DNA of 64,000 bases from Myxococcales bacterium (lineage in GTDB: Bacteria; Myxococcota_A; Polyangia; Polyangiales; DASUME01), in NCBI GenBank assembly GCA_047601445.1, contig JASGJH010000001.1, forward strand, positions 8,416,001 through 8,480,000, in the 5' to 3' direction. The notes under the pieces were generated by a model. The model was given only the letters and a program-made list of their open reading frames with translations, was not told the origin of the DNA and ran no database searches. A program made the translations under genes and the position numbers. Positions 10,049-63,599 of this stretch are shown here, one piece after another (within the stretch, counting starts at the first letter, position 1; each line of letters starts with the position of its first letter).

Positions 10049-12428
10049 ATGGGTTCGTGTCGGATTCGGTCGAAGCGGGCGCTGGCGAGCAGGACGGCGC
10101 TCGTCATGGCGCTCGGTCTCGCCGCCTGCGGGGAGGGCGAGGCGCCTTCTTCGGCGGCACCGGGCGCGCCGCCGGGGGCGCCCCACCAGGATTCGGACGA
10201 GATTGCCGGCGAAGTCACCGAAGACGCCGGACCTCCGAGCTTCGGTTGCGAGGCCAGACCCCCCGCGGGATTCATCACCCAGTGCTCGGGCTGCCATACG
10301 CTCGGGGGGACGAACCAGGGCGGAAAAATCCCAGACCTGCGGATGTTCGCCGGCACCGAGGCCGAGTTCGTGACCCAGGTGCGTCGCGGTGGCGGAGGGA
10401 TGCCGGCGTTTTCGGAAGCCAAGCTGAGCGACGCGGGACTGCACGAGGTCTACACCTTCCTCCGACAGGGCGACCCCGGGGCGCAGTCGGGTCAAGCGGG
10501 CGGCTCCGGCGGCGAGCAAAACTTCGGGCTAGGCAACGTCAGTCCGCTGTTCGGGGAGAATACGGCCTTGGCTGTGAGCTTCCTGCGCGACGACGGCGTG
10601 TTGATCACGCGAGGCGCGGGCCGCGTGCGTGGGCGTCACGAGCTCGAGGGGACGTACGGACCGTTTGGTCCGCTCTACTTCGAAGGACGCACCTTCGGCT
10701 TCGTGATCGAGGACTTCACGGTGCGCGGCGAGAATCGCATCGTGGTGAGCTATCTGCCGCTGGCGCGTCCGCAAGACAAGACCAACTTTCGCGCCTTCAA
10801 GATCTACGGCGATGGCAACGTCTTTCACGCCAACACGGGCATGGACTCGGATACGCCGCTGCCTTCGCTCGCGCAGGCAGGCAGCGACCCGGCGCAGGAA
10901 TACGCGACCCGCATCGCGGCCTTTGCCCGGGTGCAATCCCATGAGGTCAAAGGCAACGCGCGCACGGGGAAGCCCCTGCAGGCGGGCGAGCTGTTCGAGT
11001 TCGAGTTCGGTGTGTTCATCGAGCCCTCGGCCGTGCGCGCCAACAGTCGAACCGCCTATTACACGGATACCTTCCGCTACCGCGTGGGCCAGGGCGGTCT
11101 CACGATGGAGAACGCCGACACCAGCGGCCAGCTCGGGCCCACGATGGACGCGCAGCTCGGCGGTGCCACCACCGTCGCCTGGGCCTACGCCGAACCGGAG
11201 CTGTACTTCTCCCAACTGGCGTCGAACACTCAGCACGAGCACGTGCAGGCGTTCGTGGATGGCCGCAGGCTGTTTCACACGGACTTCGACACAGGGGCCC
11301 ACAGCGAAGCGGGCAATCCGGCGTTCGACGCCCAAGCCCACAAACTCGGACCGCTATTCGTGAGCCATGCGTGCGTGAACTGCCACGTGCGCAACGGTGG
11401 AGGCGAGACCCTGGTGGGCAGCTTGAGCGAGACCAGCACGATGGCGTTCAAGCTGTACGATGCGGGGGCGGAGCTCGGCAATCAGCTGCAGCTGCAGGAA
11501 GGATTGGCGCGCTCGGTCGCGCCGGAGCAGCGCGAGGTCTCGTTGTCCGACGGAACGCAAATGCTGTCACGTCCGACCTTCGAGGTGCAGGACAAAACCG
11601 GGCGGGAGCTCGCGTACTCGGCGCGTGTGGCGCGTCGCCTGGTGGGGCTCGGGCTGCTCGAAGCGATCGACGAGACCACCCTCCTTTCACGGGCCGATCC
11701 GCAAGACTGCGATGGCGATGGGATCTCGGGCAGGCCGCATCTGGTGGCCGACCCGGAGCGCGGCGTGCTGCGGGTGGGGCGCTTTGGTTGGCGCGCCGAA
11801 AAGGTGAGCGTCGAGCATCAGGTGGCCGACGCGTTGTCGGCAGACCTCGGCGTGTCCTCCCGCGTGCTGCCTGGCAGCGCGCAGGCAGCCGGAGCGGGCG
11901 GGGCCGCTGGCGCGCAGAACGTCGAGCTCGACGATGATGGCCTGCGCCGCCTCACCACGTACATGCGCCTGCTCGGCGTGCCACCGCAGCGCGCGGCGGA
12001 CAGCCCCACCGTGATGCGCGGCGAAACGGTGTTTCACGAGGTGGGTTGTGCGAACTGTCACGTGTCGGCGCTGACCACCGGCAGCTCCCATCCTTTCATC
12101 GAACTGCGTGGGCAGTCGATCCGGCCGTACACGGATTTGCTGCTGCATGATCTGGGGCCCGATCTCAGCCGATGCCAGCGGCCTGCCGGCCCGCGAAGGC
12201 GTGGAGCAGCCGGCCAGTGCGAGCGAGTGGCGCACCGCACCGCTGTGGGGCGTGGGGCTCTCGCAGACCGTGCAGGGCTACGTGGCGCTCCTGCACGACG
12301 GCCGAGCCCACAGCGTGCTCGAAGCGATTCTGTGGCACGGGGGCGAGGCTCAAGCGGCGCGCGAGCGGGTGGTCGCGCTGTCGAAGGCCGACCGTGAGGC
12401 TCTCGTGCAGTTCGTGGAATCGCTATGA
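10049..12428 (+). CDS. Cytochrome c plus di-heme oxidoreductase (DUF1111/DHOR-like) lipoprotein; apparent frameshift at ~12167
   Basis: Lipobox LAAC. Three CxxCH motifs (CSGCH, CVNCH, CANCH), GLGLLEAI, DPQDCDGDGISGR, GRFGW, YTDLLLHDLG. The +1 frame carries EWRTAPLWG and LLHDGRA...EAILWHGGEA. Removing A12167 joins the two frames. Confidence 0.85.
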
Positions 12429-13132
12429 GTTCTGTGGCTTACACTCGCGCGGACGTTCTTGCTACGCGTCGGCAGTCGGCTCGAGTAAGGTGGCCCGCCG
12501 TGGCTCCACCCCTGACGAGTCGAGCGCCCTCGGACTTTGGCCTGCGGGCCGATCCGTCCGCTGCGTCGGCCGGGATGTCCGGCCGCGAGCAAGACGACAA
12601 GGCGCGTGTGCGGCAGGTCGAGGCCGTGGAGTCTTCCGAGGGCTTGGATACGGCCGCGGTGTTCCGACGCTACGCGCCCTATGTAGCCAAGGTTGGACTG
12701 CGCATCCTGGGGCGGCGCGATGAGCTCGATGACTTCGTGCAAGATGTCTTCGTCACGGTCCATCGCAAGCTCGACTCGCTGCGCGATGTGGCCGCGTTGA
12801 AGCACTGGTTGGCCACCCTGGCGGTTCATGAGGCGACGCGCAGACTGCGGCGTCGCAAGTTGCGTGCGCTGTTGGGCATGGGCTCGGTGCCGGACTACGC
12901 GGATGCCGCAGACGCCTCGGCTTCACCCGAGCAGCGCGCGCTGTTGGCGCAGGTCTTCTTGGCGCTCGAGGCGCTGCCAGCAGACGAGCACGTGGCTTGG
13001 TCCCTGCGCTACATCGAGGGCGAGACCATGGAGCGCGTGGCGGAGCTGTGCGCCTGCTCGCTCTCCACCGCGAAGCGCCGTGTGGCGGGGGCCGAAAAGG
13101 CGCTCGAAAAGCGGGGACTAAGCCATGTCTGA
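12425..13132 (+). CDS. ECF sigma-70 factor (cassette 1)
   Basis: Region 2 DDFVQDVF...WL and a region 4 helix-turn-helix (TMERVAELCACSLSTAKRRV). ATGA overlap with the upstream gene; the true start may lie downstream. Confidence 0.9.
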   Translation: MSSVAYTRADVLATRRQSARVRWPAVAPPLTSRAPSDFGLRADPSAASAGMSGREQDDKARVRQVEAVESSEGLDTAAVFRRYAPYVAKVGLRILGRRDELDDFVQDVFVTVHRKLDSLRDVAALKHWLATLAVHEATRRLRRRKLRALLGMGSVPDYADAADASASPEQRALLAQVFLALEALPADEHVAWSLRYIEGETMERVAELCACSLSTAKRRVAGAEKALEKRGLSHV

Positions 13133-14273
13133 GCGGCTTGCCGAGCGGCTATCCCAGGCGCGAGAGCACCTCGATGCGGACTTCGGATCCCGTGAGGTCG
13201 AGCGCGGACTCGCGGGTCTGCAGCAGCGGATTCGCCGGCGTCGTCGTGTGACGCAGGCGACAGGTGCGCTGACGGTGCTGACATTGCTGGTGGGCTCCTG
13301 GTTGCTCTTGCCGCGCGCGTCCGAGGTCGCTCGCCAATCCGAGAGCGGGCCGGCGGTGGCTGGCTCGCGTGCGCTGCGCACGGCAGACGGATTGGTTGCG
13401 CGCCTGCTTTCCCCGCAGACCGTGCTGCAGCTGGAACACGAGCGACAGGACGAGGTGAGCTTGCAGCTGGAGCACGGCAGCGGTCACTTCGAGGTCACGC
13501 GTAACCCGCGGCGGCGCTATCGCGTGCGCGCGGGACAAGTCGACGTGGAAGTACTGGGCACCGCCTTTGAGGTCACCAGACAGGCAGCAGGCGCCAGAGT
13601 TCGTGTGGAGCACGGCCTGGTGCGCGTGCGCTGGCCCAGCGGCGAGCAGCTCTTGCACGCTGGAGAGAGCGGCGAGTTTCCTCCCGTCGTGTCCGCGCCC
13701 GTGGCCGCTGCCAGCGAGCCCGTGCAGGAGGTCGAAGCGAGTGTGTCCGCCCGCGAGCCAATCCAAGACGCGGACCTGCTCGTCGATCCGTCGCTGCGCT
13801 CTACTGTGCTCGCCCGGGACCGCTCCCGTGAGCGCTGGCGTGCACTGGAGCGCGCGGGCAAGCATCGCGAAGCATTCGGGTCCCTGGGCGAACGGCCCGT
13901 CGAAGACTTGGCCGGCCTGCTGCTCGCTGCCGATGCCGCGCGCCTGTCCGGACATCCCCAGCAGGCGGCGACGTACCTGCAACGGCTGATGCGTCGCTAC
14001 CCGCGCACCGCTCCGGCACGCCTGGCCGCCTTCACCCTGGGGCGCCTAGCGCTGCGCGAGCTCTCGGATCCTGCGCTCGCCGCCCGCAGCTTCGCGCGGG
14101 CCTATGCGCTCGATCCGAAGGGCCCCTTGGCCGAAGACGCGCTGGCACGGGAGGCCGAGGCCTACCACCGCGCGGGCGACTTGGGACGGGCCCGAAAGGC
14201 TGCTACGCGCTACATCGAGCAGTTCCCAGATGGCGTTCGGCGCGACGACATTTCCCGCTATCTCGCGCCATGA
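13125..14273 (+). CDS. FecR-domain anti-sigma with C-terminal TPR (cassette 1)
   Basis: One TM helix, FecR motifs (LEHGSGHFEV, VEVLGTAFEV, VRVEHGLVRV), and a TPR tail (ADAARLSG...RYP...AAFTLGR...EDALAR). Confidence 0.85.
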   Translation: MSERLAERLSQAREHLDADFGSREVERGLAGLQQRIRRRRRVTQATGALTVLTLLVGSWLLLPRASEVARQSESGPAVAGSRALRTADGLVARLLSPQTVLQLEHERQDEVSLQLEHGSGHFEVTRNPRRRYRVRAGQVDVEVLGTAFEVTRQAAGARVRVEHGLVRVRWPSGEQLLHAGESGEFPPVVSAPVAAASEPVQEVEASVSAREPIQDADLLVDPSLRSTVLARDRSRERWRALERAGKHREAFGSLGERPVEDLAGLLLAADAARLSGHPQQAATYLQRLMRRYPRTAPARLAAFTLGRLALRELSDPALAARSFARAYALDPKGPLAEDALAREAEAYHRAGDLGRARKAATRYIEQFPDGVRRDDISRYLAP

Positions 14274-14301: not shown

Positions 14302-15321
14302 GTGGCTCGCGGTCTGGCCCGCCTGCTCCGGAGCCAGACGTGGGGGCTCTTGAGTTTGCTTTGGCTGTGGGTAGCCCATGCTCAAGCGCAGGCCGACACG
14401 GGATCTCACAGGCGCGTCACGATCACCTTCACGAGCTGTGAGGTCCCATCGCCGTCCGAGGTGCGCGCGCTGCTGGCGATCGAGCTGCGCGAGGACCTGC
14501 TGCCCGACGGCACCGGCGAGCTCGAAACGGGCGGGGCCGCCCGCGAGCAACGAGCTGACTACCACGTGCAGGTGCAGTGCAGCGGACACGAGGCTCAGGT
14601 GACCGTGCGCGAGACCGCTGCCACGCGAACTATCGCTCTCGCCAAGGAGCCCGTGGAACTGCGCGCACGCCTGCTCGCGCTGGCCATCGCCGAGCAAGTC
14701 AGTCCGGCTTCGGAGCCGGTGCCCACCAAGGCACAGACAGCCACCACGGAGCCCGCCATCGTGCAGCCCGATCCGCAAGCTGTTGCCCCGCTTCCACGCT
14801 CGACGCCGCGCGCGTCCGCCGCCGAACACTTCGCCTGGGCCGCCCTGCAGCTGCAGGCGAGTCCCTTGCTCGGTCCGGGTGTCACGCTCGGGCTCTCACA
14901 GCGGATTTGGCGCCTCCTTTCCTGGTCGAGCAGTCTCTCCTACAGCTTCGCACGCAGCTCCCTCGACGACGGTGAACTGCGCGTGCAACAGACCTCCGTG
15001 AACACAGGACCTGCGCTGCACCTGGCCTTCAGCGACCTCGTGCTGGAGCTGGGCGCTGGCATGCGGGCCGGCTGGCTCGGACTGCGCGGTGAGCCCGACG
15101 ACGCGGCCCGCGTGCGCGGCAAACGCGTGGACACGTGGCTCGCAGGGCCGTCCCTGTTCGGCGCGCTGTTCGTAAACGCGGGCAAGCGCGGCTTCGGGAT
15201 GCTGGCGCTCGAGCTCGCCTATACGCTGCGCAAGGTACACGCCGATGTTCAAGGAGGCGGAGGACGCACGCTCTCTGCACTATGGGGTGCGGCTTCCCTG
15301 GGGGGAGGTTTCGCGTGGTGA
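14302..15321 (+). CDS. Secreted protein with a small N-terminal alpha/beta domain and a C-terminal amphipathic beta region (putative OM beta-barrel), cassette 1
   Basis: GTG start, signal peptide ending AHAQA, Pro linker, alternating beta-strands, terminal aromatic residue (GGGFAW). Confidence 0.65.
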   Translation: MARGLARLLRSQTWGLLSLLWLWVAHAQAQADTGSHRRVTITFTSCEVPSPSEVRALLAIELREDLLPDGTGELETGGAAREQRADYHVQVQCSGHEAQVTVRETAATRTIALAKEPVELRARLLALAIAEQVSPASEPVPTKAQTATTEPAIVQPDPQAVAPLPRSTPRASAAEHFAWAALQLQASPLLGPGVTLGLSQRIWRLLSWSSSLSYSFARSSLDDGELRVQQTSVNTGPALHLAFSDLVLELGAGMRAGWLGLRGEPDDAARVRGKRVDTWLAGPSLFGALFVNAGKRGFGMLALELAYTLRKVHADVQGGGGRTLSALWGAASLGGGFAW

Positions 15322-16256
15322 GGGCGCTCGCGTGCCGGTCGTCGGTCCCGTGGGCTGCGCTCGCGTTGGTGCTCTCCGGCTGCGCGCAGCTCGAGGCCGT
15401 GGTGCTCGTGGTGCGCGACGCGAATGTCGATGAGCCGGCGATCGACGCAGCGACGGAGCCGTCGGATGCAGGCGACGCTGGGTCCCCCGACGCGGGCCGA
15501 GACGCAGGGCCCGACACACGCGGCGTGTGCAGGAGCGGAGGCAGCAAGGACGGCTTCTACGAGACCTTCGACGGACCTGCACTGGACCCGACGCGCTGGC
15601 TCGTCGCCCAGGGCCGCCTCGAGTTCGCCGGCCGAATGGCCCAGGGCGGCTTCCTGGCCGAGAACGTCCGCGTGGAAGGCGGTTCACTCGTGCTCACCGT
15701 GCACGGAGACCTGCACGCTGGCGGACGACGCACGGGGGCTGCCATCGTGACCCGCGATCTGTTCGCGTCGGCGACGTATCAGGCCCAGGGGCACCTGGTC
15801 GGTCCGCCTGGTGTGGAGTTCGCGCTGGCGTCGCTGCGCGATGACGATCGTGAAGGTGGCATCGACATCGCGACTCCGGGCCTGGAGGCTGACCGAGCGA
15901 GCTACGCGCGAGTCCACATGCGCAGCCGCGACGCAGCGGGCACGAGCGAGACACAGTTCGCCTTGGCCGAGACCCTCGACGATGGCGCGAGTCACATCCT
16001 GCGCTTCGATTGGTACACCACGGCCCAGAGCGCGGTGCGCTTCTGGGTCGACGACATGCCGCGCTCTCAACTGGATGAGCATCTGCCGATGCGAGCTGGC
16101 CGCATGTGGCTCCTTGCCTGGGTGCCGGGCGAGGCAGCGGCCGACTTCGACACGGTCGAGATTCGCATCGAGAATGCCTTCGTCACCCCGTTCGGCAATA
16201 GTGGAGATTTATGCCAGGACGGCGAGCTCTCCGGGCCTGGACTGGCACCTCCGTAG
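15318..16256 (+). CDS. GH16-like lipoprotein lacking the catalytic glutamates
   Basis: GGAGG RBS with GTGA overlap, lipobox LSGC, GH16 scaffold (ETFDGPALDPTRW, ENVRVEGGSLVL, HILRFDW, VRFWVDD). It has GGIDIATPG where EIDIxE is expected. Confidence 0.75.
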   Translation: MRALACRSSVPWAALALVLSGCAQLEAVVLVVRDANVDEPAIDAATEPSDAGDAGSPDAGRDAGPDTRGVCRSGGSKDGFYETFDGPALDPTRWLVAQGRLEFAGRMAQGGFLAENVRVEGGSLVLTVHGDLHAGGRRTGAAIVTRDLFASATYQAQGHLVGPPGVEFALASLRDDDREGGIDIATPGLEADRASYARVHMRSRDAAGTSETQFALAETLDDGASHILRFDWYTTAQSAVRFWVDDMPRSQLDEHLPMRAGRMWLLAWVPGEAAADFDTVEIRIENAFVTPFGNSGDLCQDGELSGPGLAPP

Positions 16257-16270: not shown

Positions 16271-16308
16271 CTGAACCGATCCGCACCTGCCCTGCCTCCT
16301 AGGCTCGC
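16271..16308 (+). promoter_or_regulatory. ECF-type promoter, cassette-1 motif, copy 2
   Basis: CTGAACCG-N17-CTCCTAGG-CTC-GC-ATG, starting 38 nt before ATG 16309. Confidence 0.75.
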
Positions 16309-18105
16309 ATGCAGGCACCATCGCCAGTCACTGCCACGGCCCGTTCGCTTTTGGCGAGCGTGCTCGGGCTCTGTCTTGGGGCGTGCTCCGGATCCGTCGA
16401 GGGACCGCTGGGGCCGGGCGCTGACTTCAGCGCCTCCACGAGCGCGGCCCTGCTGGGGCGCACTGGCCCGCGCCGCCTGACCAACACGGAGTACGACAAC
16501 ACGGTGCGCGATCTCCTGGGCACCGAGCTCAACGTGGCCGCCAACTTCGTGGCCGAGGAGGCTGGTGGCTTCGACAACGTGGCTCAGGCACTCGGCATGA
16601 CCCCGAGCCAGTACGAGTCTTACTTCAACGCCGCCGAGACCCTATCGCACGAGCTGTTCGCGGACACTGCGCGCCGTGCGCAGGTCGTCTCGTGCAGCCC
16701 GACCGGGAGCGATGGCGGACCGTGCCTCGAGCAGTGGCTGTCCGAGTTCGGGGGCCGAGTCTTTCGACGCCCTCTGGCGGCCGAAGAGAAAGCGAGCCTC
16801 AAGCAGGCCTTCGGGCGCGCGCTCGCGCTGGGCGAGGCGCCGATGGCAAGTGTGGAGCATGTGCTCGTTGCCATGCTCTCGTCGCCGCAGTTCCTCTATC
16901 GCATCGAGACCGGTGCCGACGTCCAAGCAGTCGTGTCCGCCCGCGAACGAAGCACGAACGCGGGCACGTCAGCCGGCGAGCAAGGTGCCGCGAACGACGG
17001 ACGGGTGTTGCTGGACAGCTACGCGCTGGCCTCCCGTCTCTCGTACTTTCTCTGGAGCACCATGCCCGACGCGGCCCTGTTTGCGAAGGCCGAGGACGGC
17101 TCGCTCATGGATCCCGTGGTGCTTCGCGCAGAGCTCGCGCGCATGCTCGACGATCCGCGTGCCGGCTCCTTGCTGGACAACTTCGCCGCGCAGTGGCTGA
17201 GCTGGCGCGAGCTCGCCCAGCACAAGGTGCTCGCGGCCCGCTACCCCGAGTTCGATGACGCCCTGCGAGACTCGATGCTGAAGGAAGCGCGAGCCTACGT
17301 GTCGGAATTTCTATTCGAGGACCGGCCCCTCAAGGACTTCCTGCGAGCCCAGCTGAACTTCGTGGATCGACGACTCAGCCAACTCTACCAACTCGATCTG
17401 GCCCTGCCGTCGTCCGAGGAACTCGTGCGCGTCGAAGCAGGCGGGTCCGCCTGTGAGCCTGGCGTCGACAACCCTAACGGCGACCGCCGTGGCTACCTCG
17501 GCCTCGCGGCGTTTCTCACGGTGTCCTCGTTCGCCCAGCGCACCTCGCCCACGCTGCGCGCCAAGTGGGTGCTCGAGGAGCTCATGTGCAGCGTCGTCCC
17601 CCCGCCGCCACCCAACGTCACAGCTCAACTCGAGGACACCGCGAACGCTGCCGCCAGCATCGAGAACGTGCGCGAGCGCCTGGAGCTACACCGCAGCGAT
17701 CCGGGTTGCGCGAGCTGTCACGCGCGGCTCGATCCGATCGGGCTCGGTCTGGAGTCGTTCGACGCCATCGGTCGGAGCCGCACGCACTACGAGAACGGGG
17801 ATTCGATCGACACCCTCGGTGAGCTGCCGGATGGGCGCACCTTCGATGGACCGGTGGAGCTCTCCGCCATCCTGGCCGACGATCCACGCTTCGAGCCCTG
17901 CGTGGCGCGCAAGCTCTTGACCTACGCCCTCGGCCGCACCCTCGGCAGCGAGCCCGACCTCGTGGCGCACACCGTGGCCTCCTACAAGCCGCAGGGCACC
18001 CTGCGCGCGATGATCGAGAGCATCGTGCTTGGCGACGCCTTCCGGTACCAGGCCCAGTCGACGCAGGCGGAGCCGCCCGCGCGCAACGCAGGGAGTGCAC
18101 CATGA
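16309..18105 (+). CDS. DUF1587/1595/1592/1588/1585-domain lipoprotein with a heme-binding motif
   Basis: RRLTNTEYDNTVRDLLG, LSSPQFLYR, LASRLSYFLWSTMPD, TSPTLRAKW, CASCH...DPIGLGLESFDAIG, LLTYALGR. Confidence 0.9.
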   Translation: MQAPSPVTATARSLLASVLGLCLGACSGSVEGPLGPGADFSASTSAALLGRTGPRRLTNTEYDNTVRDLLGTELNVAANFVAEEAGGFDNVAQALGMTPSQYESYFNAAETLSHELFADTARRAQVVSCSPTGSDGGPCLEQWLSEFGGRVFRRPLAAEEKASLKQAFGRALALGEAPMASVEHVLVAMLSSPQFLYRIETGADVQAVVSARERSTNAGTSAGEQGAANDGRVLLDSYALASRLSYFLWSTMPDAALFAKAEDGSLMDPVVLRAELARMLDDPRAGSLLDNFAAQWLSWRELAQHKVLAARYPEFDDALRDSMLKEARAYVSEFLFEDRPLKDFLRAQLNFVDRRLSQLYQLDLALPSSEELVRVEAGGSACEPGVDNPNGDRRGYLGLAAFLTVSSFAQRTSPTLRAKWVLEELMCSVVPPPPPNVTAQLEDTANAAASIENVRERLELHRSDPGCASCHARLDPIGLGLESFDAIGRSRTHYENGDSIDTLGELPDGRTFDGPVELSAILADDPRFEPCVARKLLTYALGRTLGSEPDLVAHTVASYKPQGTLRAMIESIVLGDAFRYQAQSTQAEPPARNAGSAP

Positions 18106-19574
18106 CCAGGCCCCAGCACAGCTTCTCGCGCCGCACGCTCCTGCGTGGCGTCGGTGTGTGTCTCGCACTGCCTTATCTCGAAAGCTTGGCCCCGCGCTCA
18201 CTTGCTTCGGCGCAAGCCGCGCCCGCCAAGCGCTTCATCGCCAGCTACTTCCCGAATGGCGCCGCCGCCGACTACTGGCCCGTGAAAGGCAGTGGCGCGG
18301 GCTGGACACTCTCGCCGCTGCTGGCGCCGCTCGCCGCCCACAAACGCAGGCTCGTCGTCTTTTCCAACCTGGAGAACTACAGTCCGATGCAGGACAACCA
18401 GGGCGTGGAGCCGAGCCATGCGCGCCTGTGCGGGGCGTTTCTTACCTGCGTCGACTCCGACGCCGTGCGCGAGAAGCTCAAGGTGGAGATGGCGAATGGC
18501 ATCTCCATGGACCAGGTGATCGCCGCGCAGATGAAGACCACGCTGCCTTCGCTGGAGCTCGGTCTTTCCACCCTCAATAGCTACGAAGACGGTCGCCATC
18601 CGTCGCTCTCCCGCAGCATCGCGTGGGCGAGCACGACTCAGCCGCTCTACAAGGAGGTCAATCCCCAGGCCGTGTTCGATCGTCTGGTGGCCGCCGGGGC
18701 GGTGGACGCGAGCGGGGCGGCGGACCCCCAAGTGGCCGCGCAGGCAGCCAGGCGCAAGGCGCTCAAGCTGTCGGCCCTGGACTTCGTGCTCGAGAGCGCC
18801 CGCGGTCTGAGCGGCAAGCTCGGGCGCGAAGACAAGCCCAAGCTCGAGGAGTTCTTGAGCTCGGTGCGAAGCCTGGAAGAGCGCGTGCGCGGACTCTCGG
18901 ACGCCATCGCGCAGCAGAGCGCGCCCATGTGTGAGGTGATGGATCGCCCGCCGCGAGCCTACGCCGTCAACGTCAGCGAGGGCTACGATCGCGGCACCCA
19001 CGCCGCCGTGATGAACGACCTCATCGTGATGGCACTGCGCTGCGACGTGACCCGCGTGATTACGCACATGCTCGACGACGCCCGCAGCGACTTCGTGTAC
19101 GACCACCTGATCAACCGCAAGTTCAGCGCCGAGGGCTCTACCGAAGGCTCCGGCAAGGTGGGTGGCTTTCACGGACTGCAGCACGCCGGTGACAGCAACG
19201 ACGGCTACGCGACCATCAACTGGTGGTTCAGCCAGCAGATGGCCGAGCTATGCAGCAAGCTGGAGGCAGTGCAGGAGGGGGAGGGGAGCCTGCTCGATCA
19301 CACCCTCATCCTGTACGGCGGCGCCATGCATGGCAGCGATCACGACGGCCGACCCCTGCCCATGGCCCTCATCGGCGGCAACGGCGCGGGCATCCGCACC
19401 GATCAGCACGTGGACTTCAGCGCCAGCGCGGCCGGGCGCCCCCTGCGGGATCTCTATTTCACCATCTTGAACGGCTACTTCGGCCTCGATGTACCGAGCT
19501 TCGGCGAGCATGTGGCGGGGATTCCCAACAAGCTGATCAGCGAAATTCTCGAGCTGACCCTGCCTTTTTTCTGA
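18102..19574 (+). CDS. DUF1552-domain protein, Tat-exported
   Basis: Tat signal SRRTLLRG, LALPYLES, YFPNG, SMDQVIA, SLELG, EVNPQAVFDRL. It is the usual partner of DUF1592 proteins. Confidence 0.9.
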   Translation: MTRPQHSFSRRTLLRGVGVCLALPYLESLAPRSLASAQAAPAKRFIASYFPNGAAADYWPVKGSGAGWTLSPLLAPLAAHKRRLVVFSNLENYSPMQDNQGVEPSHARLCGAFLTCVDSDAVREKLKVEMANGISMDQVIAAQMKTTLPSLELGLSTLNSYEDGRHPSLSRSIAWASTTQPLYKEVNPQAVFDRLVAAGAVDASGAADPQVAAQAARRKALKLSALDFVLESARGLSGKLGREDKPKLEEFLSSVRSLEERVRGLSDAIAQQSAPMCEVMDRPPRAYAVNVSEGYDRGTHAAVMNDLIVMALRCDVTRVITHMLDDARSDFVYDHLINRKFSAEGSTEGSGKVGGFHGLQHAGDSNDGYATINWWFSQQMAELCSKLEAVQEGEGSLLDHTLILYGGAMHGSDHDGRPLPMALIGGNGAGIRTDQHVDFSASAAGRPLRDLYFTILNGYFGLDVPSFGEHVAGIPNKLISEILELTLPFF

Positions 19575-19608
19575 ACCGCTTTTGGCCTTCCTGCCCTCCT
19601 AGGAGGGC
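19571..19608 (+). promoter_or_regulatory. ECF-type promoter, cassette-1 motif, copy 3
   Basis: CTGAACCG-N17-CTCCTAGG-AGG-GC-ATG, starting 38 nt before ATG 19609. Confidence 0.75.
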
Positions 19609-20586
19609 ATGCGCACCCTCTTCCTCGCCTGCTGCCTCTCTCTCGTCGCCTGCACGGATGCCGACTCTCCTGGGGAATCGCTCGATGCCGGGTCTCCCCC
19701 CACCAACGACGGTGGCAAGGAGGAGGACGACGACACGGCTCACGACGCTGCTCCCGAGGACACCTCAGACGATCCGGGCGAACAAGACGCCGGTCGCGAC
19801 GCGGGCAAGCCGGACGGCAAATCCGACGCGGGCGCGGGCCAAGACCTGCCCGGTTGGAAGCTCGTGTGGAACGACGAGTTCGACGGTCCTGCCGGCACCG
19901 TGCCCGACAAGACCCGCTGGGTCCCCGAGAACAAAGGGGACGGCTTCGGCAACAACCAATTGGAGTTCGACACCAATCGCGCCGAAAACGCCGCGCTCGA
20001 CGGCAAGGGGCAGTTGATCATCACCGCCCGCAAGGAAGAGTACATGGGCCGCCACTACACCTCGGCGCGCCTCAAGACCCAGGGCAAGTTCGAGCACAGC
20101 TACGGCCGCTACGAAGCGCGCATGCAGATCCCCTTCGGCCAGGGCATGTGGCCCGCCTTCTGGATGCTCGGCACGAACATCGGAAGTGCGGGTTGGCCCG
20201 ACTGCGGGGAGATCGACATCATGGAGAACATCGGCCGCGAGCCCACGCTGGTGCACGGCACGCTGCACGGCCCTGGCTACTCGGGCGGCAACGGCATCGG
20301 CGCCTCCTCCTCACTGCCCAAGGACGCCCACTTCAGCGACGCCTTCCACGTGTACGCCATCGAGTGGGAGAAGGAGGTCGTGCGCTGGTATGTCGACGGC
20401 GAGCTGTATCAGACCCGCACTCCCAAGGATCTGCCGGGTCAAAGTAAGTGGGTCTACGATCACTCGTTCTTCATCCTGCTGAACTTGGCCGTCGGCGGGC
20501 AGTGGCCGGGCAATCCCGACAACACCACGACGTTCCCGCAACAGCTCAAGGTGGACTACCTGCGGGTCTACGATCGCATGCCCTGA
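19609..20586 (+). CDS. GH16 beta-1,3-glucanase (laminarinase-like) lipoprotein
   Basis: Lipobox LVAC, WNDEFDG, YTSARL, WPAFWMLG, intact catalytic GEIDIME, LLNLAVGG. Confidence 0.93.
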   Translation: MRTLFLACCLSLVACTDADSPGESLDAGSPPTNDGGKEEDDDTAHDAAPEDTSDDPGEQDAGRDAGKPDGKSDAGAGQDLPGWKLVWNDEFDGPAGTVPDKTRWVPENKGDGFGNNQLEFDTNRAENAALDGKGQLIITARKEEYMGRHYTSARLKTQGKFEHSYGRYEARMQIPFGQGMWPAFWMLGTNIGSAGWPDCGEIDIMENIGREPTLVHGTLHGPGYSGGNGIGASSSLPKDAHFSDAFHVYAIEWEKEVVRWYVDGELYQTRTPKDLPGQSKWVYDHSFFILLNLAVGGQWPGNPDNTTTFPQQLKVDYLRVYDRMP

Positions 20587-20591
20587 ACGCT

Positions 20592-51287: not shown

Positions 51288-51331
51288 AGAGTGTCCAGTT
51301 GCGGGGCATCCCCACGCGTTCACCAAGAAAG

Positions 51332-52561: not shown

Positions 52562-53886
52562 TGAATGGAGGGATCTACGTCTTTCTCGGGCCGACCCTGC
52601 CTGTGGCACAAGCGCGCTCCATCTTGTCTGCAGAGTACTTGCCCCCAGTCACGCTGGGGGACGTTACCCGCGTGACGGAGAAAAATCCGTCGGCCATTGC
52701 GATCATAGACGGCTTGTTCGATCAAACCCCGGCGGTCTGGCACAAGGAGATCATGTACGCCCTCCACAAGGGCATCCGTGTGCTCGGTGCGTCTAGCATG
52801 GGTGCACTGCGTGCGGCCGAGCTGCATGTCTTCGGTATGGAGGGCATCGGCAAGGTCTTCGAGGCCTACCGTGAGGGTGTTCTGGAAGATGACGACGAGG
52901 TCGCGGTCGCGCATCGGCTCGCGAGCGGCGAGTTCCGCGTAGAGTCCGAGGCCATGGTGAACGTGCGTGAGACGCTGCTGCGGGCGCAGGCGGCGGGCGT
53001 ACTCTCTCGCACGCTAGAGCAACGATTGTGCGCGATCGCCAAGGAGATGTTCTATCCCGACCGTACCTGGCGCAGCATCCTCGGATCGGCGCGCATGGCA
53101 GGTCTGCCCCAGGAGGAGCTCGCGCAACTCGAGAAGTACGTGGCCGCGTCACGCGCGGACCTCAAGCGCGAAGATGCCCTGGAGCTCTTGCACAAGTTGG
53201 CGCGGGAGCGCCACACGGCAAGACCGCGAGTCGTGCCGAGCTTCGACTTCGAGCCGACCGTCTACTGGCAAGACATGCGCTCCGAGGAGCTGCTCGAGAG
53301 CGAGCTCGAAGAGCTGGCCGGACAGCTTCCACCAGAGCTCGAGGCCGATCAGCTGCGTCGGCACGTCAGACTTTCCCAGGCGCTCCATACCGACATGGCT
53401 CGCGAGGCACTGCTGCTATTTCTGTCGCGACGCGAGGCCGAGCGCATCGGAGGTCCGCCTCCGGCCGAGGAGTGGGCGACTCGAGCCAGCGCGCTGCAGC
53501 AATCGGCGCCGTCGCTCCAGGTGGCCAACGCCCGCAGGCTCGCCGCAGCTCAGCTCGGGCTAGAAAAAGTCCTGGAAACACAGCGCGTCGATCTACTCAG
53601 CCACTTTGCCGTGCTGCTCGCCGAGCGCGGATTGTGGGAAAGCACGATCGCCGACGCTCGGCACAAGATGCGCACGCTCGCCGACCTGGGACTGACGGAG
53701 CCTTCGCTCGAGGACGCTGGGATCGATCTCCCCGGGCTCATGACGTGGTTCGCGGCGCGCTACCAGGTAGAGGTGGCAGAGCCGGAGGTCCACGCATGGA
53801 GTCTCGGCTTCACCACGGTCAACGAGTTCACCAGCGAACTCCTGCGCCAGTTCTTGGTGGAGCGGCAGGTACAGTTGGTTCCGTGA
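52561..53886 (+). CDS. tfuA: TfuA-like protein with a C-terminal helical extension
   Basis: VFLGPTL, IIDGLF...VWHKEI, GASSMGALRAAEL, DDDEVAV, FYPDRTW, DLKREDA. Confidence 0.93.
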   Translation: MNGGIYVFLGPTLPVAQARSILSAEYLPPVTLGDVTRVTEKNPSAIAIIDGLFDQTPAVWHKEIMYALHKGIRVLGASSMGALRAAELHVFGMEGIGKVFEAYREGVLEDDDEVAVAHRLASGEFRVESEAMVNVRETLLRAQAAGVLSRTLEQRLCAIAKEMFYPDRTWRSILGSARMAGLPQEELAQLEKYVAASRADLKREDALELLHKLARERHTARPRVVPSFDFEPTVYWQDMRSEELLESELEELAGQLPPELEADQLRRHVRLSQALHTDMAREALLLFLSRREAERIGGPPPAEEWATRASALQQSAPSLQVANARRLAAAQLGLEKVLETQRVDLLSHFAVLLAERGLWESTIADARHKMRTLADLGLTEPSLEDAGIDLPGLMTWFAARYQVEVAEPEVHAWSLGFTTVNEFTSELLRQFLVERQVQLVP

Positions 53887-58824: not shown

Positions 58825-58861
58825 GTGAGCCGTCTCGGCCGGCAGCGAACACTGCCTCACC
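58825..58861 (+). promoter_or_regulatory. ECF-type promoter, cassette-2 motif, copy 1
   Basis: GTGAGCCG-N17-CACTGCCT, starting 37 nt before ATG 58862. Confidence 0.65.
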
Positions 58862-59695
58862 ATGTTCTCATTCTTCTCATTCCACTCTCACCTCAAGCCG
58901 ACCTCGACAGCCTGGGGCCTGCTCTTCTTCGCATTGGGCGTTCTCGCCGGATGCGGCGACTCACCCATCCAGCCGGGCGCCGTTCCACTTCCCCAAGACG
59001 CCGGACCAGACCGCGAAGCCGAAGCGGATGTAGACGCCGCCACTGGGGTTTCGGAATGCGATGCCGACGACACCAAGAGCTGCACATGTGATGACGGCTC
59101 CGAAGGGGAGCGTACCTGCACGGACGGATTCTATGGCTTGTGCAAGGGATGCCCGACCGTCAACCGCATCGTCACCAAGTGCGTGGGAGGTGTCTACGAG
59201 GGGAGAATGGATGGCACCTATACGGGCGGTTTCCCTGGGGTGATCGCGTTCTATCCCTATATGTTGTCGGCCCAGAGTGAGCTGACCCTGCTGAACACCA
59301 CGCAAGGTGAGTTCGCGACCATCGGCGACGGCTGTCTGCGCTTCGTCTCGGGCGATGGTGGGGTGATCGACACGGGAGCCGGCTGGGTAACGGGCGAGGT
59401 CGACTGTAGAACAGGCGAGCTAGCGGGGATTTTGCGCGCCTACTACACGATGACGGACTTCTTCAGCGGCCAGACATACAAGGTGTTTTTCAAGGGCAAG
59501 TACACAGGCGTCTTCAACCCCACGACCAAGTCGTTCGACAACGGTAGGTGGACTGGTCAGGAGCCGATGGGCGCGATCAACAACGCCGGCGGCGGCGGGA
59601 CCTGGACCGGGGTGCTGAACGAAAGTCGCGCGCCGGGTTCGGGCACCTTGGAAGGCTGCTTGGGTGAAGGATTTCCCGAGAACACGTTCAAGTGA
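58862..59695 (+). CDS. Cys-rich lipoprotein (paralog A)
   Basis: Lipobox LAGC, CxC..G...C..G....C..C motif, close paralog of 62772..63599. Confidence 0.8.
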   Translation: MFSFFSFHSHLKPTSTAWGLLFFALGVLAGCGDSPIQPGAVPLPQDAGPDREAEADVDAATGVSECDADDTKSCTCDDGSEGERTCTDGFYGLCKGCPTVNRIVTKCVGGVYEGRMDGTYTGGFPGVIAFYPYMLSAQSELTLLNTTQGEFATIGDGCLRFVSGDGGVIDTGAGWVTGEVDCRTGELAGILRAYYTMTDFFSGQTYKVFFKGKYTGVFNPTTKSFDNGRWTGQEPMGAINNAGGGGTWTGVLNESRAPGSGTLEGCLGEGFPENTFK

Positions 59696-59711: not shown

Positions 59712-59744
59712 GTGAGCCGCGTGGAGGGGGTTCGGACACTATGG
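59712..59744 (+). promoter_or_regulatory. ECF-type promoter, cassette-2 motif, copy 2 (possibly autoregulatory)
   Basis: GTGAGCCG-N17-CACTATGG at the 5' end of the sigma gene. Confidence 0.65.
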
Positions 59745-60376
59745 CTACAGGCAACGTGCTAGTCCGAAAGCTTTCCATGCCACAGTCGCCTCCGCCTGCG
59801 CCCGCCCGAGACGGGGAAGACGCTCTCGTGCGGGCGCTCAAGGCGCGGCAACCCATGGCTGCGGCTCAGTTTTATGACCGCTACGCCGTACAGGTCCAAC
59901 GTGTTCTGGCGCGCGTCATGGGCGCAGATCAGGATCTGGCCGACCTGCTGCAGGAGGTTTTCGCACGCGCTCTGGCCGAGATCGACAAGCTGGAGCGCGG
60001 CGATCGGCTTGGCGCGTGGCTCAACAGCGTGGCGGTGTTCACGGCACGCGGGCACATTCGGCGCCGCAAGCGGCAGCGCTGGCTCCGTTTCTTCGCGCCC
60101 GAGGAGCTGCCCGAACGTGTTGTGCCCGAACCGGAGCACGATGTGCAGCGTGCGGTACGCGCCATGTACTCGGTCATGGACCAACTTCCGACCGACGAAC
60201 GAATCGTTTTCGCGCTGCGTTTCATGGAAGAGATGGAGTTGCTCGAAGTGGCCGAAGCCTGTGGAGTCTCCCTTGCGACGGTCAAGCGCCGCCTGGCCCG
60301 TGCCGAGCGGCGTTTCATCGAGCTGGCTCAGGATTCACCCGCGCTTCGTGCGCGGCTCCAGGGGGACATCCTGTGA
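59741..60376 (+). CDS. ECF sigma-70 factor (cassette 2)
   Basis: DLLQEVF...WL, ELLEVAEACGVSLATVKRRL. The true start is likely 59756 or 59777 if the promoter motif is real. Confidence 0.9.
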   Translation: MATGNVLVRKLSMPQSPPPAPARDGEDALVRALKARQPMAAAQFYDRYAVQVQRVLARVMGADQDLADLLQEVFARALAEIDKLERGDRLGAWLNSVAVFTARGHIRRRKRQRWLRFFAPEELPERVVPEPEHDVQRAVRAMYSVMDQLPTDERIVFALRFMEEMELLEVAEACGVSLATVKRRLARAERRFIELAQDSPALRARLQGDIL

Positions 60377-61704
60377 ACCAGCCCCTACAAAAACTGGCGC
60401 GTGAGGTGGCCGCGGCTCAGGAGGAGGCGCTCGAGAAGCGCTCCGAGCTGGGCCGCGCTCGGGTGGCTTTTCTACGGTCGCTCGCGGAACAGCAGGGAGC
60501 GGGACGCCGGCCTATCTCTTTCTTCTTCACTCAGAGGTTCGCGCGGTTCGCTTTCGGCATGCCGGCGGTATTTCTGCTTGGGCTCTGCCTTGGGTGGCTG
60601 ACCTGGTGGACGCGTCAGTCTCCTGAGCTGCCTGCGCTGAGTTTTCGCGTGGGTGGTGAGCAGGTCCAGGAGTCTGGGCGGCGGCTCGTGGCACCCGCGG
60701 ATCGCCCGCTCACCCTGGATTTCTCCGATGGCTCGCGGGTCGAGCTGGGCGCCCGGAGCGAACTGCGCGTGATCCAACTCGACAAGCGAGGAGCTCGCCT
60801 GCAGCTCGCCCATGGGAGCGTGCGCTTTGCGGTCGTCCATCGTCACGACACCTTCTGGATTCTCGAGTCCGGGCCGTTTACCACCCATGTCGTGGGAACG
60901 ACGTTCGAGGTGAATTGGAAGCCGGTCGCGGGCAATTTCGAACTGACGATGTTCGACGGTGCAGTCGAGCTCACGGGACCCGTCATCGGAAAGCAAACGG
61001 TCTCGCGATCCGAGCGGGTCAAGGTCTCCGTCAACGAAGGGCGAGCCCAGCTCGAGGCGAGCCACTCCATGGTGCCCACCGTGACGCCTCTTAGCGTGCC
61101 TGATGGTCAGCCGGATGTCGGCACCGTGGCCACCTCCATCGAGGAGGAAGCCAGTCGCCTGCCATCGCGACGACGGGCGGCCAAGGTTGCCACCGGCGTC
61201 GGCAGCATCCCATCCGAGCGCTGGCGAGAAGCGCTCGATGAGAGCCTTGCGAGGCTGTCACGCGAAGGTCGCTACGCGGAGGTCGTCGCGACAGCCGTCA
61301 GCGCGAACTGGGAACAGACGCTCTCGGCTGCGTCTCCTGACGTGCTGGTGCTACTGGGGGATGCAGCTCGTCTGTCCGGGGACGCGGAGCGGGCTCGAGA
61401 CGCATATGAACGCGTGCGTACTCGCTTCCCGGGCTCTGACGACGCAGCGAAGGCCGCCTTTGCATTGGGCAGGCTCGAGCACGACCGGCACGCACAGCCC
61501 GCGCAGGCGGCTCGCTGGTTCTCCCTGTACTTGAAAGAGGCTCGTCATGGCCCGATGGCCCGTGAGGCGATGGGGCGTCTGATGGAAGCCCAGCTCCAGA
61601 GCGGTGCCCACGCTGTCGCTCGTGAGACCGCGAAGGAATACCTCGAAGTTTACGCTGATGGTCCCCACGCCCGCCTGGCGCACCGGTTGTTGGAGGAACG
61701 TTGA
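60373..61704 (+). CDS. FecR-domain anti-sigma with C-terminal TPR (cassette 2)
   Basis: GTGA overlap, TM helix, FSDGSRVEL, LAHGSV, VVGTTFEV, TPR (GDAARLSG...RFP...AAFALGR...REAMGR). Confidence 0.85.
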   Translation: MNQPLQKLAREVAAAQEEALEKRSELGRARVAFLRSLAEQQGAGRRPISFFFTQRFARFAFGMPAVFLLGLCLGWLTWWTRQSPELPALSFRVGGEQVQESGRRLVAPADRPLTLDFSDGSRVELGARSELRVIQLDKRGARLQLAHGSVRFAVVHRHDTFWILESGPFTTHVVGTTFEVNWKPVAGNFELTMFDGAVELTGPVIGKQTVSRSERVKVSVNEGRAQLEASHSMVPTVTPLSVPDGQPDVGTVATSIEEEASRLPSRRRAAKVATGVGSIPSERWREALDESLARLSREGRYAEVVATAVSANWEQTLSAASPDVLVLLGDAARLSGDAERARDAYERVRTRFPGSDDAAKAAFALGRLEHDRHAQPAQAARWFSLYLKEARHGPMAREAMGRLMEAQLQSGAHAVARETAKEYLEVYADGPHARLAHRLLEER

Positions 61705-62735
61705 CGCGTACTCGCTGGGTAGCCGTGACGGTTGGTGTCTTGCTTTGGAGCGGACTGCTCGGCGCTTGGTCGTGGTGTTGCCAGGCGGCTGCCCAGGAAA
61801 AGCGTGCTCGTGTCCTGGTCGTCGACTCGGAGACCGCCGGTGCGCTGTCGCTCCGCGTCAGTGCCGAGCTCGCCGACGTCGGGCTCGAACCGGTCCGACT
61901 GACCCCGAGCGCGATTCCAGACCTCGCTGCGCTGGGCAATCTCGCGCGAGCTCACGACGCGGAGCTCGCGTTGTGCATCGAGATGAAGGGCTCTTTTGCC
62001 CGCGTGTGGATCGTCGATCGGGTCACGCGCAAGGCACTCCGACGAGACTTCGCGCTGTCTGGCCCGGGGAGCGGCCAGAAGCAGGACGCTGCCGTCGGGG
62101 TCGTCGCGCTCGGTGTCGTCGAGCTCGTGCGGGCAAGCTTGCTCGAGCTCGATGTACTGCTGCCGACCCACCAAGTGCCTTCCCCCAGCCCCAAGCTGAT
62201 CAACCTCGCGCACGAGCCTGCACGCTTCTCACTGCAAGTATCGCTAGGCATCCATGGAGGCCCAGGGGGAGCGCCGCCGCTAGCCCAGTTCCATCTCGGC
62301 GGGAGCATTCGACTACATTCCCGCCTTCACGCCGTCTTGTCAGCGGGACTTCCCATTCACCCCGTTCGCGTCTCGGACTCTCAAGGCACCGCGACCCTCT
62401 GGATGGGATCCTTTGTCGCTGGCCTGCGCGTTCCCCTCGGTGAGGACGACCTGGCCGTGCGCCCGCACCTTGGGCTCGGAATCCTTGGCGTCTTGCTCAC
62501 GTCGGATGGAGCCGGCAAGGCGCCCTTCGAAGGGCGTCGCAGTCGGACCGTCACGAGCGGTCCGGCTGTTGAACTGGGGGCTCGCTGCGCCCTCACGCAG
62601 AGAGTCCGACTGCTGCTGAATCTCAGCGCGGCCTACCTGGTATCGCCGCTGGTGGTCGCTTTTGCCGATCAGGACGTCGCGAGAATCGGCCGGCCCTGGC
62701 TGGGCGCTACGCTCGGTCTCGATCTGGCTCCTTAG
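61701..62735 (+). CDS. Secreted protein with an N-terminal alpha/beta domain and a C-terminal beta region (putative OM beta-barrel), cassette 2
   Basis: TTGA overlap, signal peptide, 'VAL..VEL' helix as in 14302..15321, amphipathic strands. Confidence 0.65.
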   Translation: MTRTRWVAVTVGVLLWSGLLGAWSWCCQAAAQEKRARVLVVDSETAGALSLRVSAELADVGLEPVRLTPSAIPDLAALGNLARAHDAELALCIEMKGSFARVWIVDRVTRKALRRDFALSGPGSGQKQDAAVGVVALGVVELVRASLLELDVLLPTHQVPSPSPKLINLAHEPARFSLQVSLGIHGGPGGAPPLAQFHLGGSIRLHSRLHAVLSAGLPIHPVRVSDSQGTATLWMGSFVAGLRVPLGEDDLAVRPHLGLGILGVLLTSDGAGKAPFEGRRSRTVTSGPAVELGARCALTQRVRLLLNLSAAYLVSPLVVAFADQDVARIGRPWLGATLGLDLAP

Positions 62736-62771
62736 TCCAACGCGCCGTTGTGCCCGATAGAGGATCACTCC

Positions 62772-63599
62772 ATGCCGCTATTCTCTTCGCCAGATTCACA
62801 CGAGACGCCCTGGATTTCGCCGATGCTGCGGATCGCTCGCTGGGAATTTGTCGCCTGCCTTGGGCCGCTGCTCGGCTGCGGGGACGCCATCGTTCGCCCC
62901 ATCGTTGCCCCGCCACAGGACAGCATCGAGGCCGGCATCGACGCCTCTCAACCGCTCGCGGAATGCAGCGCTGGCGAGAGGCGTAGTTGTCCGTGCGGCG
63001 ACGGTGCGAGCGGTCACCGCTCCTGCTCCGATGGGTTCTTCGGCTTGTGCAAGGGATGCCCCGCCTCCGTAGACGTTGCTTCGAGGTGCGAAGCCGGTGT
63101 TTACGAGGGAACCATGGATGGCGTCTACACGGGGGGGATTCCGGGCGTGATCGCTTTCTATCCCTACACGATCTCGGCCAAGAGTGAGCTGACCCTGAGC
63201 GAGAGCCAGGGCGAGTTTGCGAGCATCGGCGATGGCTGCCTGCGCTTCGTGTCGGGAGACGGCGGAGTCGCCGACACCGGAGCAGGTTGGGTGTCAGGTG
63301 AGGTCGACTGCAGGACGGGCGAGTTCGCCGGGATTCTGCGCGCCTACTACACCATGAAGGACTTCCTCTCTGGCAAGACCTACAAGGTGTTCTTCAAGGG
63401 CAAGTACGTAGCGACCTACAACTTCAAGACCAAGGCGTTCGAAGGCGGCACCTGGACTGGGCAGGAGCCGATGGGGTCGATCAACGACGCCGGCGGCGAG
63501 GGCACCTGGACCGGAGCGCTGAATGAAAGCCGCCCGCCTCAAGATGGAACCTTGAAGGGCTGTCTGGGCGAGCCGTTCCCGGAGCAGAACTTCAAGTAG
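62772..63599 (+). CDS. Cys-rich lipoprotein (paralog B), fourth gene of cassette 2
   Basis: Lipobox LLGC, core nearly colinear with 58862..59695. Start at 62772 or 62823. Confidence 0.8.
   Translation: MPLFSSPDSHETPWISPMLRIARWEFVACLGPLLGCGDAIVRPIVAPPQDSIEAGIDASQPLAECSAGERRSCPCGDGASGHRSCSDGFFGLCKGCPASVDVASRCEAGVYEGTMDGVYTGGIPGVIAFYPYTISAKSELTLSESQGEFASIGDGCLRFVSGDGGVADTGAGWVSGEVDCRTGEFAGILRAYYTMKDFLSGKTYKVFFKGKYVATYNFKTKAFEGGTWTGQEPMGSINDAGGEGTWTGALNESRPPQDGTLKGCLGEPFPEQNFK

Follow-up and report, generated by a model that had tools for sequence, protein, structure and literature searches.

How does a FecR-type anti-sigma factor learn of conditions outside a Gram-negative cell if no TonB-dependent receptor (TBDR) is encoded beside it? 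Known FecR-type signalling depends on a TonB-dependent transducer, and a receptor-less group of extracytoplasmic function (ECF) sigma factors, bearing tetratricopeptide repeats (TPRs), is left without an input. The question is raised by a 64,000-nucleotide stretch of a Myxococcales bacterium (GenBank assembly GCA_047601445.1, contig JASGJH010000001.1, positions 8,416,001 to 8,480,000; hereafter the window), whose genome of 9.5 Mb and 66% GC forms a single contig. An earlier note, made from the letters of the window, had described two four-gene cassettes, each consisting of an ECF sigma factor, a FecR protein with TPRs, a secreted β protein (gene 3) and a lipoprotein (gene 4), and had proposed that gene 4 is a duplicated copy of the regulated target that serves as sensor. 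The order and coordinates of both cassettes are borne out (Table 1). The genes for the sigma factor, the single-pass FecR-TPR anti-sigma factor and a barrel that has a TolB_N-like domain on its periplasmic side recur as a linked set, and that for a lipoprotein with a hydrophobic tag is often translationally coupled to them. The idea of a paralog as sensor fits some cassettes, cassette 1 with the strongest support, but does not define the module.

The conserved core and its small outer-membrane barrel

In both cassettes, the ECF sigma factor adjoins a single-pass anti-sigma factor with a FecR domain, whose C terminus matches TPR families, leaving the FecR C-terminal family unmatched. There are 17 FecR matches in the genome, about a dozen of them adjoining an ECF sigma factor, and the exact four-gene order is found at four loci (8.43, 8.476, 5.746, and 4.079 Mb), others being permuted. 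Gene calls and lipobox calls were made with simple in-house scripts.

Gene 3 of both cassettes is without a Pfam or NCBIfam match, and a Pfam scan of 143 aligned members of its family returned no relevant family and no Pfam barrel family. As modeled by AlphaFold, the cassette-2 protein (predicted local distance difference test score, pLDDT, 93.3) consists of an N-terminal α/β domain and eight long strands. Its barrel superposes on OmpW (Z 18.0, root-mean-square deviation (rmsd) 2.7, 168 aligned), with OprF and NspA also matching. The N-terminal domain resembles that of TolB (Z 10.6, rmsd 2.8, 109 aligned); an LPHT-ring chain scores Z 10.3, and unrelated folds come not far behind these two. The modeled eight-stranded fold, together with the signal peptide, supports the earlier proposal that gene 3 encodes an outer-membrane β-protein, predicted here to be an OmpW-like barrel. 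The cassette-1 protein was assigned by membership of the gene-3 profile, and its fold is carried over from the cassette-2 member.

A profile built from eight members defines a gene-3 family of 1,955 clusters at E ≤ 0.001, and look-alikes are for the most part from Myxococcota. FecR-TPR profile matches occur in 42 of the 61 sampled genomes of the order, with up to 32 per genome, and gene 3 was found in every genome of a second family (15 of 15) and, phylum-wide, in 15 or more of 151, a lower bound given that 14 candidates were scored per genome. Among loci seeded with FecR (the best 80 of 258 profile matches, which favors strong full-length ones), gene 3 lies no more than two genes away in 58 of 75, five loci without a called FecR being left out; among those seeded with gene 3, a sigma factor or FecR lies equally close in 46 of 53, again leaving out five (of 58) without a called gene 3. 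These linkage and occurrence counts are not independent, because the sampled genomes are related. Searches with single sequences recovered far less: two loci with one FecR-TPR protein, one outside relative of gene 3, and two of the cassette-2 lipoprotein, LipoB. Where a tightly linked gene on the same strand directly follows the sigma-FecR-barrel trio, it encodes a lipoprotein in 45 of 49 cases.

No TBDR is encoded in the window, as the earlier note had observed, and for the two cassettes the nearest ones lie at distances of 240 and 287 kb. The genome has 18 TBDR matches, none near a cassette, and its single STN match lies in a separate secretin-like gene; hence, no cognate transducer with an N-terminal STN signalling domain was found. 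Across the gene-3 loci, a TBDR was seen in at least 4 of 123. A sigma/FecR-TPR relay that is free of TBDRs and has a dedicated small outer-membrane barrel is thus supported.

Promoter-like motifs define small regulons

The earlier note had also proposed ECF-like promoters, specific to each cassette, before the intact glycoside hydrolase (GH16) gene at 19609 and before the lipoprotein gene LipoA. Both motifs exist, have fixed spacing and recur elsewhere. TGAACCG-N17-CTCY has three sites in the window against 0.12 expected, a number reached in none of 100 shuffles, and TGAGCC-N18-CACT has two against 0.23, reached in one of 100; these figures are overstated because both patterns were derived from the very sites counted, and the independent support for the motifs is their recurrence in other genomes. 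Genome-wide, the cassette-1 motif has seven sites, five of them near starts and three in the window (before the DHOR, DUF1592, and GH16 genes), compared with 2 of 24 near starts for a control of four other spacings. The site before DHOR, which the earlier note lacked, stands ahead of the DHOR-sigma operon and is likely autoregulatory. Versions that keep this spacing stand before the corresponding genes in five other genomes (G001, G003, G006, G104, and G114), in all of which the DHOR gene is linked to relatives of cassette 1; in G006 the motif precedes a remote GH16 orthologue on a different contig, and in G114 the GH16 gene is coupled to the DUF1552 gene.

Specificity held less well than existence. 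The cassette-2 motif is found also before the sigma gene of the 5.746-Mb cassette and within the 5′ end of its gene 4, so that a promoter unique to cassette 2 is ruled out, and it precedes sigma genes in loci L039, L138, and L140. Two further cassettes of this genome carry their own versions of a motif. A loose family pattern lies upstream of 31 of 104 sigma genes, 57 of 430 control lipoprotein genes, and 89 of 1,286 other genes. Each sigma subfamily has a promoter-like motif of fixed spacing before its own operon and before a few genes for secreted proteins.

Several further sites were seen. TTCATCA-N17-GACTCA at 9366-9395 (+), before a 182-amino acid lipoprotein gene at 9405, stands also before the sigma gene of the 8.337-Mb cassette, a shared motif that suggests control in trans. 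TTCAACC-N17-CACGA at 38472-38500 (+), before a PAS protein gene at 38511, is the motif of the 8.279-Mb cassette. A motif of cassette-1 type at G000:C1:3725077, near a distant gene of the LipoA/LipoB family, would be a possible cross-link between the two systems of the window. Genes for DUF1592 proteins, mostly with DUF1552, recur beside cassettes (L041, L050, L066, L087, L140, and window 16309-19574), and in L050, L087, L140, and the window they stand behind the sigma factor's motif.

The fourth gene of cassette 1

The fourth gene of cassette 1 had been taken for a degenerate GH16. It appears to be a remote relative without the catalytic Glu residues and not a recent copy of the intact gene at 19609. 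There is no Pfam match; pairwise, the two proteins are 32% identical over 144 amino acids (E 2e-8). Six gene-4 orthologues align to GH16 through their N-terminal half (hhalign 92.9%, E 3.8e-7, 112 columns), and PDB profile matches, all at E > 0.001, are to GH16 in five of eight cases. The catalytic motif of GH16 is ExDxxE. Both Glu residues are replaced in all six orthologues, from six genomes, at a mean column identity that is still 59%. Orthologues were found in 5 of 120 other genomes searched, representing two families, and each sits in the same cassette. Orthologues of the intact GH16 are 71-75% identical to 19609 across genomes, compared with the partial 32% to gene 4; the split between the two is therefore old, and recent duplication is ruled out. 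Gene 4 of cassette 1 thus appears from these alignments to be an old, conserved family remotely related to GH16. When a conserved dead enzyme is co-inherited with a sigma factor and that factor's motif stands before the live enzyme, the most plausible role for the dead one is that of a binding protein.

The fourth gene of cassette 2

LipoB is homologous to LipoA, as had been noted (66% identical over 253 amino acids), and the two are sisters in the tree (98/95) within a family of 14 matches in the genome. Only 31 of 75 four-fold sites are identical, so the duplication was not recent. The LipoB model (pLDDT 85.6) is a soluble eight-stranded barrel that matches the C-lobe of TbpB (Z 10.7, rmsd 2.9, 126 aligned, 14% identity); other eight-stranded barrels lie within 1-2 Z of this match, from which no ligand can be inferred, and Foldseek returned nothing for LipoB at E ≤ 0.001. 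The resemblance to a TbpB lobe suggests that LipoB is a binding protein. The next relatives of the pair (P0154 and gene 4 of the 5.746-Mb cassette) both carry tag-like segments, and so LipoA may be the derived copy, although the node joining the 5.746-Mb gene to the pair is weak (82/53). The direction proposed earlier, in which gene 4 copies its target, is thus unproven, and the cassette-2 tree leans the opposite way.

Does gene 4 generally copy its target?

As a general rule, the proposal that gene 4 is homologous to a gene with the cognate promoter is not supported: only 8 of the 52 fourth genes, falling in 7 of 28 homology clusters, have a local homologue, compared with 34 of 430 control lipoproteins (p = 0.11). 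"Local" means within the 4-20 kb fetched; regulon members encoded farther off and highly diverged homologues, such as the GH16 of G114, escape this count. When homologues were counted more sensitively, with phmmer, p came to 0.03-0.17, the loosest threshold taking in spurious matches, and for loci of at least 15 kb the counts are 7 of 32 and 31 of 348. That gene 4 always copies its target is accordingly rejected.

What stands is a set of individual cases. Of the six cassettes of this genome to which a lipoprotein is tightly linked, a homologue bearing the sigma factor's motif exists for three, namely cassettes 1 (six genomes) and 2 and that at 8.279 Mb, where the pair is 55% identical; at 5.746 Mb gene 4 carries the motif itself. 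In locus L064, gene 4 is 28% identical over 385 amino acids to an adjacent copper monooxygenase and is without four of its five metal ligands, the roles of which we take to be those known from PHM, and the intact monooxygenase gene shares the sigma factor's motif. On sequence, this is a full independent case of a predicted dead gene 4 beside a motif-bearing intact enzyme. Weaker pairs occur in L140 (a biased, Cys-rich match), L087 (RCC1, a large family), and L054 (no motif found).

The commonest class of gene 4 is the RCC1 propeller (15 loci), and others are Kelch or PD40 propellers, intact GH16s, and Cys-rich repeats; three unannotated fourth genes had no match in a sequence search of the PDB. 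A strict motif for the RCC1 cassettes had a single site in G007 and another in G031 (in both, ahead of the sigma gene), one in G004, four in G054, and none in G006. Paralogy among RCC1 proteins is uninformative because the family is too large (7-43 matches per genome).

The hydrophobic tag and docking

A hydrophobic stretch after the lipidated Cys, which the earlier note had reported in both fourth genes and not in their partners, is indeed present in both, but the contrast between LipoB and LipoA is slight, the two ranking 155 and 224 among 1333 lipoproteins against a held-out tag profile. Defined as at least three hydrophobic residues within positions +3 to +10 following the Cys, the tag occurs in 34 of 52 fourth genes and 73 of 430 controls, and in 16 of 28 homology clusters. 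Its pattern is roughly C-x(2-4)-hydrophobic-polar-V-L, in an alignment enriched for tagged sequences by selection. It is a loose signal, since the held-out profile ranks the fourth genes of the genome from 73 to 514.

Docking of gene 4 on gene 3 was addressed by complex prediction. Gene 3 with the 32-residue N terminus of LipoB scored 0.36 against 0.02 for the best control, a weak pass of a mark that 116 of 157 solved pairs and 2 of 215 mismatched ones also reach; of these, only 18 solved pairs, and both mismatches, reach it at or below 0.60. The runs agreed in at least 86% of contacts and the partner had a pLDDT of at least 54; no interface was reported.

A proposed envelope relay and its alternatives

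From the parts, their linkage, the motifs and the catalytic loss observed, we infer how ligand binding, docking, topology and proteolysis might be arranged. The cassettes would constitute a modular envelope relay, in which the TonB-dependent transducer is replaced by two small parts, the barrel and the lipoprotein. The latter would be held on the barrel protein by its post-Cys hydrophobic segment, and its swappable C-terminal domain would determine ligand specificity. Binding would be relayed via the periplasmic domain of the barrel to the TPR/FecR region, freeing the sigma factor, probably, as cell-surface signalling suggests by analogy, through regulated proteolysis. This exchangeable domain would sometimes be borrowed from the regulated output, sometimes be an intact enzyme, and often be a β-propeller. 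We give somewhat better than an even chance to this account of gene 4 as a sensor head docked on a mini-barrel that, through its periplasmic domain, touches the TPR/FecR region and governs sigma release. Cassette 1 would then most likely sense β-glucan, a substrate suggested by the GH16 family, through its dead GH16 and induce the active GH16, DUF1592/DUF1552, and DHOR proteins, and cassette 2 would sense the ligand of the TbpB-like LipoA/LipoB barrel and induce LipoA. A bolder version, advanced tentatively and as possible, would see here a widespread, undescribed plug-and-play receptor, its lipoproteins docked by their tags on a mini-barrel that talks to FecR-TPR without TonB energy, with specificities arising from tagged, catalytically decaying duplicates of regulated enzymes, such that each switch senses the substrate of its enzyme.

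Apart from the low share of local homologues, a number of observations weigh against the sensor-head account. Sigma-FecR-barrel cassettes are followed by a gene on the opposite strand in 32 of 98 cases and by a distant gene in 14, and gene 4 is therefore often absent in cis; the 2.198-Mb cassette of this genome is without one. The 4.079- and 8.337-Mb cassettes, two of the six in the genome, have no pair of gene 4 and motif-bearing homologue, and in G001, where gene 4 of cassette 1 is retained, the 19609 query found no GH16. Gene 4 is an intact-looking GH128 among β-glucan enzymes, with its own promoter motif, in L100, and an intact GH16 without a clear tag in L155 and L074. In L138 (10276-10530, +) it is an 84-amino acid lipoprotein, coupled to gene 3, that consists of a LipoB-like tag and has no domain. 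The six fourth genes of the genome rank only 73, 94, 97, 155, 294, and 514 of 1333 against the held-out tag profile, in which the 8.279-Mb partner outranks its gene 4. Much of this would be expected if the three-gene switch sensed an envelope cue alone and gene 4 were a passenger output encoded in the operon, the pairs having arisen by ordinary local duplication, promoter included: gene 4 is frequently absent in cis, a motif of its own accompanies it at 5.746 Mb and also in L100, the excess of local paralogs is small, and LipoA and LipoB are sisters within a larger family. We nevertheless regard a passenger role as unlikely, since it leaves unexplained the loss of catalytic residues with conservation in six genomes, the independent monooxygenase case, and the tag that unrelated domains have in common (16 of 28 clusters).

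The tag-only protein of L138 and the conservation of the tag on variable domains would also fit a gene 4 that acts as plug, stabilizer, or brake, its tag occupying the barrel and keeping the anti-sigma factor intact, so that loss or titration of gene 4 turns the sigma factor on; in classical cell-surface signalling, a receptor domain likewise protects the anti-sigma factor before induction, according to the accessible text of PMC11637429. Dead-enzyme domains that match the regulated enzyme point instead to ligand specificity, and a brake of this kind likewise appears unlikely, as does the corollary that the attached domain is displayed cargo or a tuner of release, although braking and sensing by a docked head can both be true at once. 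Classical signalling in trans, with FecR-TPR answering to TBDRs encoded elsewhere and genes 3 and 4 as outputs, could appeal to the FecR domain, to the 18 TBDRs of the genome, and to the TBDR of L066, three genes removed from gene 3, and another at the L059 locus. It is very improbable, given that no STN match coincides with a TBDR, that the anti-sigma factors end in TPRs and gave no match to a FecR C-terminal family, and that TBDRs are so sparse (at least 4 of 123) in gene-3 loci.

Features of the window and of related loci

The features of the two cassettes and their predicted regulons are collected in Table 1. The DHOR gene is frameshifted between about 12196 and 12213, the G006 orthologue aligning up to 12196 and then in another frame from 12213; this may be a sequencing error.

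Table 1. Positions in the window of the cassette genes, predicted outputs and promoter-like sites
Feature	Position	Strand	Remarks
Cassette-1 site TGAACCG-N17-CTCT	10012..10039	+	before DHOR-sigma operon
Cytochrome c/DHOR di-haem lipoprotein	10049..12428	+	true C terminus overlaps sigma 1 start
ECF sigma factor 1	12425..13132	+	
Anti-sigma 1	13125..14273	+	short cytoplasmic N terminus, one hydrophobic helix, FecR domain PF04773, TPR repeats
Gene 3, cassette 1	14302..15321	+	signal peptide, predicted periplasmic α/β domain and small outer-membrane barrel
Gene 4, cassette 1	15315..16256	+	lipoprotein, Cys at 15381, hydrophobic tag, GH16-like domain without both catalytic Glu
Cassette-1 promoter-like site	16272..16299	+	before DUF1592
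DUF1592-family lipoprotein	16309-18105	+	predicted regulon member
DUF1552 protein	18102-19574	+	predicted regulon member
Cassette-1 promoter-like site	19572..19599	+	before intact GH16
Intact GH16 lipoprotein (EIDIME motif)	19609..20586	+	predicted output
Cassette-2 site TGAGCC-N18-CACT	58826..58853	+	before LipoA
LipoA, lipoprotein with TbpB-like soluble 8-stranded barrel	58862..59695	+	predicted output
Cassette-2 promoter-like site	59713..59740	+	before sigma 2
ECF sigma factor 2	59741..60376	+	true start may be ATG at 59777
Anti-sigma 2	60373..61704	+	hydrophobic helix, FecR, TPR
Gene 3, cassette 2	61701..62735	+	modeled TolB_N/FlgT-like domain and OmpW/OprF-like 8-stranded barrel
Gene 4 (LipoB), cassette 2	62772..63599	+	lipoprotein, Cys at 62877, tagged, modeled TbpB C-lobe-like barrel

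Among the other cassettes, the FecR-TPR gene of that at 4.079 Mb (L025 6407-7595, −) is split by a frameshift. At 8.876 Mb (L023 5928-7762, −), the sigma and FecR-TPR genes occur without genes 3 and 4, and syntenic loci (L033, L034, L037) retain a barrel and an RCC1 lipoprotein. At 7.327-7.331 Mb (L031 6942-11337), two divergent barrel-sigma-FecR cassettes lie back to back, and their anti-sigma factors have Cys/His N-terminal segments. Beside the 8.279-Mb cassette (L027 1-5761; genome 8271921-8277760), there are five tandem precursor-like peptides of ∼63 amino acids, followed by apparent export genes. Elsewhere in the window, a YcaO and TfuA pair with an Imm49 immunity-domain protein occupies 51299-53886 (+) and 53911-55731 (−); such YcaO/TfuA pairs carry out thioamide-type modification.

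Comparison with known systems

A literature search with poor reach into subscription papers and into the supplementary tables of PMC7826278 returned no published description of the four-part module, and FecR is not mentioned in the accessible parts of PMC12288465 or PMC3696898. The cassettes apparently provide a real, widespread and undescribed outer half for a known orphan type of sigma/anti-sigma pair. If the relay operates as proposed, it would be a second path by which signals cross the outer membrane of Gram-negative cells, it would explain how many secreted enzymes of these bacteria are matched to external substrates, and pseudo-enzyme sensors would have arisen repeatedly. Cassette 1 offers a testable case, with a candidate ligand class, three predicted promoters and a conserved dead enzyme.

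The closest known type is ECF267, which, in the accessible description, pairs an ECF sigma factor with an anti-sigma factor that is FecR-like and fused to TPRs at +1, has no FecA-like receptor, and is known from Sorangium and Chondromyces (Casas-Pastor et al. 2021, PMC7826278). The cassettes share the TPR-fused anti-sigma factor at +1 and the TBDR-free neighborhood, a likeness of genetic context. The same description proposes control by a kinase, one to three protein kinases being encoded nearby, reports no conserved promoter, and, as far as its accessible text goes, mentions neither barrel nor lipoprotein (PMC7826278). Here, in contrast, promoters are conserved within subfamilies and no kinase gene was seen beside either cassette; no Ser/Thr kinase was found among the window proteins scanned, cassette 2 lying at the window edge, whereas kinases adjoin the related cassettes of L035, L039, and L068. 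The module is a candidate input for this receptor-less, TPR-bearing group.

The FecI/FecR/FecA, Fox, and Pup systems, as described in the accessible text of PMC11637429, are alike in having an ECF sigma factor, a single-pass FecR anti-sigma factor, and an outer-membrane partner with a periplasmic domain. The cassettes differ from them in having no TonB-dependent transducer or STN signalling domain, in the TPRs that appear to take the place of the STN subdomain of the anti-sigma factor, and in the eight-stranded barrel and separate lipoprotein. To the surface lipoprotein barrels of the TbpB, HpuA, fHbp, and haemophore kind, LipoB is alike in modeled fold only. Dma1/Das1 of Bacteroides is an ECF anti-sigma system that likewise reaches the outer membrane, but there, so far as the accessible text of PMC10927553 describes it, one polypeptide crosses both membranes, the sigma factor is of ECF21, and the distribution is limited to Bacteroidota. 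The logic by which a sensor copies the output would be shared with SigI6/RsgI6-GH10 of Clostridium thermocellum, in which, according to the parts of PMC4711584 available, a GH10 domain of low activity, 57% identical to the regulated Xyn10D, is the sensor. That system is Gram-positive and its sensor is fused to the anti-sigma factor (PMC4711584), whereas in the cassettes the anti-sigma factor is a FecR-TPR protein, and the candidate sensor is an unfused lipoprotein that would lie beyond a second membrane.

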